DNA from: a phage
Sequence record: PX667085.1
Reading direction: 5' to 3' (one strand)
Length of the DNA stretch: 64,000 nucleotides
The notes under the pieces were generated by a model that saw nothing but the letters and a program-made list of their open reading frames with translations, was not told the DNA's origin and ran no database searches. The position numbers were made by a program, and so were the translations under genes. Below are positions 31,378 through 33,586 of this stretch, one piece after another (position 1 is the stretch's first letter; every line of letters begins with the position of its first letter).

Positions 31378-31596
31378 ATGCGTAAATTAGTGAGCTTTAA
31401 TGTTTCAATTCTTGTTGATGAACAAAATGAAGATGTTATTAAAGGTCTTGCAAATAAGATTGCAGGTGGAATGACGGAAGCTGAAGTGTGGGAAGAATGT
31501 GCTCGACTTTATGAGGAAGGTGTTATTGAGGTCTTGGGGGATGAGATTAATATGGACGATGTTGTAAAAGTAACTGTGGAGCGTATCAATGACTAA
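31378..31596 (+). CDS. hypothetical protein (72 aa)
   Basis: AAGGAGAA ribosome binding site. Confidence 0.5.
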   Translation: MRKLVSFNVSILVDEQNEDVIKGLANKIAGGMTEAEVWEECARLYEEGVIEVLGDEINMDDVVKVTVERIND

Positions 31597-32182
31597 ATCA
31601 AAACAAATCAATATTGCCAAAGAAATTCTTACCGTATTAAAGATCGCTGATCCTAATTCTGTCTTGGCTGGCGGTGCTGTTCGTGATTGGCGTATTCTTG
31701 ATATTGCTGGACGTGATCTGGATTTCTATACATCCCTTCCTGCACATCGGACTGAAGAACAAATACAAGGATTAATTGCATCTGCTTTAATGGGAACCAA
31801 TATTCGTAAACTAGGAAACAAAGAGGCTTCTGACAATTATGAAGGTGTTACTGGTCTTAAACACGTTTTTGAGTTTGAACGTGATGGTCAGCTTTGCAAC
31901 CTTATGATTATGGAACCAAGCGTAATGACAACCTTTCTAAATGAGTTCGATCTGTCCATCTGCCAGGCTGCATTTGATGGGAAGGATTGTTATTATTCTA
32001 AAGATTTTGAAACAACCTTGGAAACAGGGATCTGCTTCTTGCACAAAGACGTTAGAGAAGATGCCAAACACGTTATTAAAATTGCTACACGTTTCCCATA
32101 TCTTCGTTTTGTGAAAGAGGTTAAGGTTCCACGTCCACCTCAAGTAGATACCAGATTGGAAGAAGATGATATTCCTTGGTAA
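31589..32182 (+). CDS. Pol-beta-superfamily nucleotidyltransferase (CCA-adding/poly(A) polymerase head-domain-like)
   Basis: LAGGAVRDWRILDIAGRDLDFY matches the GGxVRD...DxD head motif; only 197 aa. Confidence 0.5.
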   Translation: MTKSKQINIAKEILTVLKIADPNSVLAGGAVRDWRILDIAGRDLDFYTSLPAHRTEEQIQGLIASALMGTNIRKLGNKEASDNYEGVTGLKHVFEFERDGQLCNLMIMEPSVMTTFLNEFDLSICQAAFDGKDCYYSKDFETTLETGICFLHKDVREDAKHVIKIATRFPYLRFVKEVKVPRPPQVDTRLEEDDIPW

Positions 32183-32227: not shown

Positions 32228-32620
32228 ATGACTGAACGTTCTAAGATAGCTGTTGAAACTGTTTATGGAAACTATACCAGTTTGACACTAGTTGAGAAAA
32301 ATGTTGTAGGTCTTGACAACTCTTTTTATTTTCAAATTTTGGTTATTCAAGGTGGAAACAAGAAGCTAACTGCTCGTGTTGAAACATCTGAAATAATTGA
32401 AACCACTGTTACAAACAAAGAATTCATTTCACTGCAAGATACAATCCGAAACGTTATAGACGAAGAAGGCAAAGCTGCCACAATTAAACTCGGAGGTTTC
32501 CCAGTGCAAATAGTTCATTTTCCTAATGGTGAAATTGGAGTTGGAATAGGTAAAGGTAAATACCTGTTAGAGCAAGATGATATGGAAAGACTCCGTTCTT
32601 TCTGTGCAAAATTAATGTAA
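32228..32620 (+). CDS. hypothetical protein (130 aa)
   Basis: ORF after TTGACA-containing intergenic region; weak ribosome binding site. Confidence 0.45.
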   Translation: MTERSKIAVETVYGNYTSLTLVEKNVVGLDNSFYFQILVIQGGNKKLTARVETSEIIETTVTNKEFISLQDTIRNVIDEEGKAATIKLGGFPVQIVHFPNGEIGVGIGKGKYLLEQDDMERLRSFCAKLM

Positions 32621-32636
32621 TGTAGAGGAGATAATA

Positions 32637-33524
32637 ATGTCCGTAATTAATACTGAAACTGATCGTAAAGGCAAAACCGTAACTTATGCAACTGGTATCG
32701 TAGACTACGTTAAACTGGATAAATTCGCTGAACCTAAAACTTTTCATTGGGAAGGAAAAACGATTGTTTCAACTCACCGAGCTTCTCTTGTTCTGAAAGA
32801 GAAAGGTGCTAAACCAGATGAGAAAGGTGTTTGGATTTCTCTTGGTGACATTGAACTGAAAGAAGGTTATGAAAACCTGCAAGTCAAAGAAGGTGATAAT
32901 TGGATCACTATTGAAAAAGGTGTAGAAGTAAGTATTGATATTGATCGCGTTGATAATAAAGGCGGTAAAACTTACTACAATACTAAAAAATCTCGTATTA
33001 CAGTATTGTCTACCGATGGTGTTCAGAAGTCTAACAAATCTTCTGGCAATAAAGGTTCCAACGATGCTGCTCCTAAGCAATCCTATAAAAAACGTGATAC
33101 TGTAGGTCTGGAAACTGGTCACGCAGTAAATGGTGCACTGGAACTGATTCGTAATGGTGTTAAAGGCGATGCTTTCGATATCGCTGGGGTTGTTCAATCT
33201 GCAACTGTCACGCTGAAATCGGAAATTGCTGAATCTCGTGGCGTTGATATTAATGATTATGATCTTGGGGCATCTGTTGGTCACGCTATTCTTAATGCTT
33301 GTAAAGACCATACCATTAAGACTGTATCTGTAGAAGATCTGATTGACTCTGCTCGTAAAGTTCTAGCTCTGTCTGATAAAGTTGCTGCTGCCATTCGTGG
33401 TTCCGCAGAACAACCTAAGAAAGAAGAGAAGAAAGAAGTTAAAAAGCCTGAACCACAACCAGAACCAACTCCAAGCAATCAAGAAGAACCTCCAATGGAC
33501 TTCGATGATGATATTCCATTCTGA
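32637..33524 (+). CDS. putative single-stranded DNA-binding protein
   Basis: C-terminus EPPMDFDDDIPF matches the E. coli SSB C-terminal tip (from memory); basic/acidic linker precedes it. Confidence 0.55.
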   Translation: MSVINTETDRKGKTVTYATGIVDYVKLDKFAEPKTFHWEGKTIVSTHRASLVLKEKGAKPDEKGVWISLGDIELKEGYENLQVKEGDNWITIEKGVEVSIDIDRVDNKGGKTYYNTKKSRITVLSTDGVQKSNKSSGNKGSNDAAPKQSYKKRDTVGLETGHAVNGALELIRNGVKGDAFDIAGVVQSATVTLKSEIAESRGVDINDYDLGASVGHAILNACKDHTIKTVSVEDLIDSARKVLALSDKVAAAIRGSAEQPKKEEKKEVKKPEPQPEPTPSNQEEPPMDFDDDIPF

Positions 33525-33551
33525 TCTTATTGATTTATAAAGAGTTTTTAT

Positions 33552-33586
33552 AAAAGAAAAGGGAACCTTTGCGGGTTCCCTTTTTT
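33552..33586. terminator. bidirectional rho-independent terminator
   Basis: gggaacc/ggttccc hairpin flanked by an A-run and T6 between convergent genes. Confidence 0.7.

Follow-up and report, generated by a model that had tools for sequence, protein, structure and literature searches.

The window, namely the whole stretch of 64,000 nucleotides analysed here (sequence record PX667085.1), carries an SSB-like gene at the end of a set of putative replication genes (Table 1). Escherichia phage ECO340P1 (genus Phapecoctavirus, Stephanstirmvirinae) matches the region of the window with 100% identity, and phAPEC8 and numerous further Phapecoctavirus genomes match it with 98-99%, which bears out the earlier note in its claim of a phage protein; the source is a phAPEC8-like myovirus of E. 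coli. By gene annotation, the phage has a T7-like replisome, which includes a polymerase of family A and a primase/helicase. The relative ESCO25, which is annotated, has these genes in one co-directional replication block that begins with primase/helicase and a hypothetical gene, goes on with N6-adenine methyltransferase, DNA polymerase and three small ORFs, and ends with nucleotidyltransferase, another hypothetical gene and the SSB-like gene, on which the tail-fibre and baseplate genes converge from the opposite strand.

Table 1. Features of the SSB-like gene and its surroundings (positions in the window)
Feature	Position	Strand	Remarks
Neighbouring nucleotidyltransferase, 197 aa	31589..32182	+	C-terminus EEDDIPW; two genes upstream of the SSB-like gene, same operon
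Shine-Dalgarno GAGGAG	32625..32630	+	6 nt 5' of the ATG; read from sequence
SSB-like gene (PHROG 4477)	32637..33524	+	295 aa, ATG to TGA, stop included; from the ORF list
OB-like beta domain, residues 1-131	32637..33029	+	Putative ssDNA-binding module
Basic disordered inter-domain linker, residues 132-153	33030..33095	+	pLDDT <50 at 132-149; pI 10.3
Four-helix domain, residues 154-255	33096..33401	+	Helices 156-172, 179-201, 208-223, 232-253; pLDDT 91-97
Lys/Glu/Pro-rich disordered linker, residues 256-283	33402..33485	+	Low pLDDT; 17-20% conservation
Tip, residues 284-295, EPPMDFDDDIPF	33486..33521	+	Same 12 residues as in the C-terminal tip of E. coli SSB (SSB-Ct)
Empty insertion site	33519..33556	+	From three-way DNA alignment; relatives hold a ~490-bp endonuclease cassette here
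Hairpin with 11-bp stem, T-runs on both strands	33557..33584		No strand; putative bidirectional terminator separating the replication block from the convergent tail genes

Identical or near-identical SSB-like proteins are found in 58 phage records, and the gene is mostly labelled 'hypothetical protein' in GenBank, with a minority of labels 'SSB' or 'single-stranded DNA-binding protein'. No other gene carries an SSB annotation in vB_EcoM_3A1_SA_NWU, a fully annotated relative, and phmmer searches of the 901 ORFs of this relative with the OB core of E. coli SSB (EcSSB), T4 gp32 and T7 gp2.5 gave no match. The tail of the EcSSB query agrees with the PDB match described below. The full-length EcSSB query matched only the tail of the SSB-like protein among the 901 ORFs.

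The C-terminal tip of the SSB-like protein

The SSB-like protein ends in ...QEEPPMDFDDDIPF. A phmmer search of PDB sequences aligned its final 12 residues, EPPMDFDDDIPF, to residues 167-178 of 1eqq_A (E. coli SSB) with 100% identity (12/12 terminal residues), and the same residues are also identical in 7f2n_A. The earlier note had pointed to an SSB tip of nine residues at the end of this ORF; the ORF lies exactly at the coordinates given there, and the match is longer than the note says. In the same search, no solved chain among all PDB sequences matched the rest of the protein, and a profile of 56 family sequences matched nothing but the tail. The relaxed tip pattern [DE][DE]x0-1[ILVM]P[FWY] at the C-terminus occurs in 2 of the 339 ORFs (>=40 aa) of the window and in 2 of the 901 ORFs in 150 kb of the genome of the close relative, which is 99.3% identical over the compared locus. 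This rarity together with the identity in the PDB establishes that the tip is real and that its resemblance to SSB-Ct is not due to chance.

Of all segments of the family, the tip is conserved best, and it is under strong purifying selection. In the 56-sequence family alignment, P294 and F295 do not vary, and D290 and D292 hardly do. When conservation of each segment was expressed as identity relative to the window protein in the 33 homologs of less than 45% overall identity, tip residues 285-295 were 82% identical, compared with 39% for the helical domain, 32% for the OB domain and 16-17% for the two disordered linkers. Moreover, members from enterobacterial phages keep the extended peptide PPMDFDDDIPF, although their overall identity is only 31-35% outside it.

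In the DNA, the resemblance of the tail-coding sequence to E. coli ssb genes (81-92% identity) is restricted to the final 39-56 nt. The matches in E. coli were to ssb genes only, with 525 of the 571 places on plasmids, and no E. coli genome covered at least 80% of the 145-nt tail query. Likeness confined to the last 39-56 nt is expected from selection on an identical peptide and is not evidence for a recent transfer of the segment, and recent capture of the tail from host ssb is ruled out by this limit and by the coverage. To our knowledge, DDDIPF by itself is nearly universal among bacterial SSBs. Only the 12-residue identity is informative on the host. The hint taken from the tip, that the host SSB ends in DDDIPF, fits the hosts, which are E. 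coli and other Enterobacterales.

Domain architecture and family

The AlphaFold2 model, which was built on the alignment of 56 homologs (mean pLDDT 82), consists of an all-beta part (residues 4-125), a disordered stretch (132-149), helices (156-253) and a disordered tail (about 254-295). The pI is 7.8 for the OB domain, 5.0 for the helical domain and 4.3 for the tail, beside the basic inter-domain linker (Table 1). The earlier note had proposed an OB-fold prediction for residues 1-130 as a check, and the beta domain predicted there gave OB-like structure matches, headed by MCM10 with ssDNA (7.0) and the OB lipoprotein 3f1z (6.8), followed by RPA14, RPA32 and mitochondrial SSB Rim1 (6.5 each), and lower by Bartonella SSB (6.1), PriB (6.0) and E. 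coli SSB (5.8). The list also holds anticodon-binding domains of AsnRS and AspRS, and the top OB matches are mostly binders of ssDNA or other nucleic acids. Foldseek against the PDB returned OB domains of aminoacyl-tRNA synthetases and MCM and the SSB of D. radiodurans, with no match at E <= 0.001, and BFVD returned uncharacterised family members and weak SSB matches. Because the structure matches agree but none in Foldseek reaches this threshold, the N-terminal OB assignment is reasonably supported as a prediction rather than a demonstration. The conserved residues of this domain include K41, H47, W66, K84, K111 and Y114, and such basic and aromatic residues of the barrel, being of the types that OB folds use for contact with ssDNA, may serve the same purpose here.

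Positions conserved in at least 75% of the sequences are more numerous in the helical domain (27) than in the OB domain (18). The helical domain carries the motifs D154-x2-G-x-E-x-GHAxNG and DYDLGASVGHAxLNA and, the tip aside, most of the near-invariant positions of the family (D154, G157, G161, H162, A163, T190, K194, G211, V214, G215, A217 and A221). Its structure matches were generic helical bundles only, and we propose that it is a domain for oligomerisation or interaction.

The protein belongs to PHROG 4477 ('unknown function'; E = 2.7e-97). Neither Pfam nor NCBIfam found a domain in it, and Pfam gave no match to SSB (PF00436). The only models above noise were those of SSB, at about residues 250-295; among them, NCBIfam PRK09010 scored 22.8 bits against a cut-off of 260 and covered residues 254-295 only. 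The OB core of the bacterial SSB family (PF00436 / PRK09010) was not detected by sequence, and the EcSSB OB core matched nothing in the genome of the relative by phmmer. The features shared with bacterial SSBs are the predicted OB-fold domain and the disordered linker with D-D-D-I-P-F at the extreme C-terminus.

A profile search of 1.84 billion representative proteins at E <= 1e-10 gave a family of 219 clusters (50% identity). The members fall into a class of about 260-300 aa and one of about 370-415 aa, which align as one family; in the longer class, seen in rV5-like homologs, a further beta domain (~100 aa) separates the OB domain from the helices. The window protein is a one-OB variant without this middle domain. 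It is homologous over its full length to PHROG 4477 and Bas52_0087-like proteins, and it has the helical motifs of the family, GHAxN and GASVGHA, including the residue of the D252V escape mutation described below. Distant members retain the helical domain with a smaller N-terminal beta domain, and the N-terminus of one of them matched Pfam tRNA_anti-codon (OB fold) below threshold (E = 0.0011, 19.3 bits, cut-off 27). They have long Pro/Val/Glu-rich linkers and end in DDDLPW, EDLPW or EELPW. An apparently standalone SSB of 'helical domain plus tail' in Salmonella phage NINP13076 was rejected as a truncated CDS call, as translation placed its start inside the helical domain; a similar one in phage 40 starts at the same position of the locus and is likely truncated too.

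A longer homolog has been studied by genetics. Bas52_0087 (QXV84166.1) of Escherichia phage RudolfGeigy/Bas52 (Vequintavirus) was described as an SSB-like protein with a conserved C-tip and as the trigger of DRT10 (UG17), a reverse-transcriptase defence that requires it for activation (bioRxiv 10.64898/2026.04.29.721553). Phold assigned an SSB-like fold to it, two OB folds were counted, its helical domain was called a putative oligomerisation interface, and two DRT10 escapers, D252V and Y351C, were mapped to it (bioRxiv 10.64898/2026.04.29.721553). Expressed alone, it neither harmed the cells nor triggered DRT10 (bioRxiv 10.64898/2026.04.29.721553). The host exonuclease SbcB (ExoI) modulates DRT10 and its overexpression weakens restriction, the link of SbcB to Bas52_0087 being genetic and not by binding, and DRT10 protects against Stephanstirmvirinae generally, that is, the subfamily of the window (bioRxiv 10.64898/2026.04.29.721553).

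By BLASTP, Bas52_0087 (MZ501102 75981-77207) is 35% identical to the window protein in the OB domain (E = 8e-13) and 33% identical in the helical domain plus tail (E = 9e-16). In the alignment, D252 falls on D154, the near-invariant residue with which the helical domain begins, and Y351 on about A250 in the last helix, so that both DRT10 escape sites lie in this domain. That the escapers are missense only would fit an essential gene. The two homologs share the family alignment and the DDDIPF end, and both genes lie just downstream of the genes for DNA polymerase and primase/helicase. On the other hand, Bas52_0087 is 408 aa long, with the ~100-aa extra beta domain between its OB and helical domains in contrast to the single OB domain of the window protein, and its tip stands in the context ...QYSFDDDIPF, whereas that of the window protein, EPPMDFDDDIPF, is fully identical to the host. 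The upstream 130-aa gene of the window (32228..32620) was considered as a conserved partner and discarded, as the gene that precedes Bas52_0087 is not similar to it.

A second tip and an endonuclease cassette

The C-terminus of the neighbouring nucleotidyltransferase is the only other tip-like end in the genome of the close relative. Its DDIPW is kept in homologs down to 59% identity, one of which has DSFPW, and is missing in the two most distant homologs. The AlphaFold2 model of this enzyme is of low confidence (pLDDT 62), and its last 26 residues are apparently disordered, which hints weakly at a flexible tail.

About 13% of the homolog clusters of the SSB-like protein run on past ...DIPF with AP[IV]GLQY... 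for 14-17 residues, and the peptide of the extended allele reads ...DDDIPFAPIGLQYGRNFLHCF. In phage nieznany and in a metagenomic contig with 99% identity to the window, the extension forms the 5' part of the ~490-bp cassette, which begins at the third base of the tip Phe codon and takes the place of stop codon and spacer. Its product is an endonuclease of 164 aa (PHROG 2340, E = 1.5e-48), in which the motif HAHHCDY...LHHEAWH is HNH-like. The cassette alleles are identical to the window through GATATTCCATT (Phe codon), diverge from its third base and regain homology at the terminator, so that the window is an empty-site allele, with the sequence GATGATGATATTCCATTCTGA at the empty site. An endonuclease of the PHROG 2340 family also lies directly 3' of a very divergent homolog from a Klebsiella phage. 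The placement of the cassette at the tip codons makes the tip-coding DNA look like a homing site. The extension is not always paired with the endonuclease: phi92 has the extension with a methyltransferase downstream.

In published structures of SSB-Ct complexes, binding depends on the terminal carboxylate. An extension past the tip should block such binding, and the free tip may therefore not be strictly essential; the natural alleles with an internal and presumably masked tip are viable.

The DDDIPF and DDIPW ends of these adjacent proteins, the D[DE]LPW ends of distant members and the endonuclease cassette that would mask the tip point to a wider idea, which we consider unlikely, that SSB-Ct mimicry is a modular 'address tag' of the phage group beyond one protein. 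If this were true, several phage enzymes would be routed to the docking pockets of host SSB partners or to one phage-encoded reader, and masked alleles would tune the routing and perhaps the detection by defences such as DRT10.

Role of the SSB-like protein and related systems

The SSB-like protein is probably the replicative SSB of the phage, belonging to a phage-specific family and mimicking the tail of host SSB. The computational results support the SSB-like reading of the earlier note by the 12-residue tail, the predicted OB domain, the position in the replication block and the homology to Bas52_0087. Specifically, the tip is far better conserved (82%) than the folded domains (32-39%), and the gene is the last of the replication block, with the sole SSB annotation and no other candidate in the genome of the relative. 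The architecture predicted by AlphaFold2, the weak SSB matches in BFVD and the sub-threshold OB match of the distant member suggest the same, as does the homology to Bas52_0087, which is described as SSB-like, is required for the activation of DRT10, is linked genetically to SbcB and gave escapers by missense only. On the other hand, the protein shares no sequence homology with characterised SSBs except in the tail, its OB domain is not markedly basic (pI 7.8), and about 13% of the homolog clusters extend 14-17 aa past the tip.

As a mechanism, the N-terminal OB-like domain would bind ssDNA at the T7-type replisome, the conserved four-helix domain may mediate self-association or cooperative assembly, and the flexible linker would display the peptide identical to E. 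coli SSB-Ct. SSB-Ct is a hub that recruits more than a dozen replication and repair proteins in E. coli, and SbcB (ExoI) is a known partner of it. Since the tail displays a copy of SSB-Ct, the host partners of SSB may be recruited to phage ssDNA or competed off host SSB: ssDNA coated with the phage protein would dock SSB-interacting proteins of the host, or the phage protein would compete with host SSB for them. The candidate partners of the tip are ExoI/SbcB, PriA, RecQ, RecO, the chi subunit, Ung and others. As proposed in the earlier note, the tip may hijack the interactome of host SSB, for which the sole experimental link is the genetics of the homolog with ExoI/SbcB in the preprint. That expression of Bas52_0087 alone is harmless and does not trigger DRT10 argues against strong titration of the host partners.

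Other functions of the tip are compatible with the SSB role. The T7-like replisome, with its family-A polymerase and primase/helicase, raises the question whether the tip docks these phage-encoded proteins as T7 gp2.5 does, its likeness to host SSB being ancestral or incidental. In that case, the phage polymerase or primase/helicase would be the partner to which the tip links both the SSB-like protein and the nucleotidyltransferase with its DDIPW end. A second protein of the same operon with a conserved DDIPW tip indeed suggests a docking site common to several phage proteins, and distant members end in DDLPW or EELPW, which is not the host motif. However, the identity with the host over 12 residues is far more than any acidic tail ending in an aromatic residue would show, PPMDFDDDIPF is kept in enterobacterial-phage members that are only 31-35% identical elsewhere, and Bas52_0087 is genetically linked to host SbcB. 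We consider docking of phage partners unlikely as the main function, though it is not mutually exclusive with host mimicry. It is rather improbable that the protein is mainly a decoy or competitor, whose SSB-Ct titrates or displaces host nucleases or repair factors (e.g., ExoI) and so protects intermediates of phage replication or recombination. Such a decoy would have no need of the conserved OB and helical domains and would leave the replicative job to another SSB, for which the genome of the relative offers no candidate; moreover, overexpression of the homolog alone did not affect host viability, and alleles with the tip masked by the extension are common. In favour of a decoy are the attenuation of DRT10 restriction by SbcB overexpression and the stronger constraint on the tip than on the DNA-binding domain. 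Docking of phage partners and the decoy function differ only in what the tip does.

A protein that does not bind DNA would depart further from the replicative SSB with host-tail mimicry. The barrel might accept proteins or other ligands, with the tail localising the protein to hubs of host SSB partners, as the E-values of Foldseek are not significant and the charge of the beta domain is near-neutral. This is very improbable, because ssDNA and nucleic-acid binders dominate the top OB matches, the gene lies within the replication module, aromatic and basic residues of the barrel are conserved, and Phold gave an SSB-like fold for Bas52_0087.

The idea of an SSB-like protein is not new: some GenBank records already say SSB, and a preprint of 2026 deals with the homolog. 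Our study adds the domain map of the one-OB variant, a measure of the selection on the tip, the placement of the DRT10 escape sites on this protein, the result that the genome of a close relative holds no other SSB candidate, and the findings on the nucleotidyltransferase tip and the cassette. An SSB of a lytic phage with an exact copy of SSB-Ct on an unrelated scaffold would be a clean natural experiment on interactome mimicry. The family is implicated as a DRT10 trigger, and the one-OB version, with its domains mapped and its conserved residues matched to the escape mutations, offers biochemists a smaller construct. In practical terms the gain is modest: it supports renaming of a gene that is mostly called 'hypothetical protein' and provides testable predictions of tip partners.

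Finally, the protein can be compared with known SSBs. E. coli SSB (PF00436; PDB 1eqq, 1kaw) has the same arrangement of an OB domain, a disordered linker and an acidic tip. The folded parts of the two proteins are without sequence homology, and the window protein differs in having the conserved four-helix domain between the OB domain and the tail and in a linker rich in Lys/Glu/Pro instead of Gly/Gln/Pro. T7 gp2.5 is a non-canonical OB-fold SSB of a phage and acts together with a primase/helicase and a polymerase of family A, and its acidic tail ending in Phe is an element for protein interaction that docks T7 DNA polymerase and gp4. The window protein is similar in its acidic C-terminal tail, terminal aromatic residue and origin from a phage with a family-A polymerase and primase/helicase. 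However, gp2.5 has no helical domain and its tail is not a copy of host SSB-Ct. The window protein shows neither sequence similarity nor close structural similarity to gp2.5, and the gp2.5 query had no phmmer match among the 901 ORFs of the relative. The SSB of HK620, a member of the canonical family, needs its NDYPPF tail for stimulation of Sak4. This SSB and those of conjugative plasmids resemble the window protein in being encoded by mobile elements and in recruiting partners by the C-terminal tail, but they are true PF00436 homologs, whereas the window protein shares the tip alone.

Endonuclease cassette at the tip codon and post-tip extensions

In close relatives of the phage studied here, an endonuclease cassette of about 490 bp lies at the very end of the SSB-like gene, and comparison with the window shows that the insertion begins at the third base of the tip Phe codon. 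The encoded enzyme (164 aa, PHROG 2340) carries an HNH-like motif. The cassette takes the place of the stop codon and spacer of the SSB-like gene, and thereby appends 15 residues, APIGLQYGRNFLHCF, behind the DDDIPF of the protein. Complete copies were found in nieznany, ZCKP1, Mt1B1_P17 and PsgM04F, and several other phages retain the first ~60 nt of the cassette alone. Moreover, a divergent homolog of the SSB-like gene in a Klebsiella phage is followed downstream by the same endonuclease family (PHROG 2340).

A conserved extension behind the tip ([AS]P[ILV]GLQY...) was found in 15-17 of the 120 homolog clusters in the set P0001-P0120, and these came from several lineages. Downstream of the extended homolog of phi92 lies a DNA methyltransferase gene, not an endonuclease gene. 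The post-tip extension could be a remnant of an earlier homing event; alternatively, it could be functional and serve to mask the free tip or take its place.

Features at the SSB-like locus and at homologous loci (L numbers, loci of other phages or contigs)
Feature	Location	Strand	Remark
Nucleotidyltransferase, PHROG 10174, 197 aa	window 31589..32182	+	tip codons 32165..32179
130-aa protein gene, PHROG 16560 (unknown function)	window 32228..32620	+	between nucleotidyltransferase and SSB-like gene
Empty cassette site	window 33519..33556
Endonuclease cassette, phage nieznany	L010 2742-3236
Endonuclease cassette	L011 3905-4399
phi92 gp156	L012 1501-2448		SSB-like homolog with post-tip extension
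CDS, Salmonella phage NINP13076	L003 2552-2986		annotated 'single-stranded DNA-binding protein'
CDS, Salmonella phage 40	L004 2552-2941

Genes upstream of the SSB-like gene

The nucleotidyltransferase encoded two genes 5' of the SSB-like gene ends in EEDDIPW, an SSB-tip-like motif. Apart from the SSB-like protein, it was the sole ORF with such a C-terminus in a scan of a whole phage genome, that of a close relative (150 kb, 901 ORFs). Nucleotidyltransferase homologs that are at least 59% identical keep DDIPW, except for one that has DSFPW; the two most remote ones, at 31-34% identity, lack it. The final 26 residues are without structure in the AF2 model (pLDDT 62), hinting that this tail may be flexible. 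The 130-aa protein had no match in Pfam or NCBIfam, and no similarity was found to the gene at the equivalent position in the Escherichia phage Bas52.

Database records and distant family members

The CDS of NINP13076 is a truncated call, whose start (MGAGYKVKDE...) falls inside a family member's helical domain, and that of Salmonella phage 40 is probably the same truncated call, judging from the shared start position at the locus. Host or taxon labels look doubtful in four records: Acinetobacter phage vB_AbaM_ABPW7 (locus 100% identical in DNA to the SSB-like gene), Pseudomonas phage PsgM04F and Campylobacter phage C3 (78.5% and 62% identical, respectively, to its protein product), and the homolog P0063, labeled 'Cystoviridae sp.' at NCBI.

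In the distant family members P0244, P0258, P0265 and P0270 the beta domain at the N-terminus is smaller, the GHAxN helical domain is shared with the rest of the family, and a long Pro/Val/Glu-rich linker leads to DDDLPW, EDLPW or EELPW at the C-terminus. Tips ending in W are natural variants in this family, whose hallmark looks to be its helical domain and not the OB domain.
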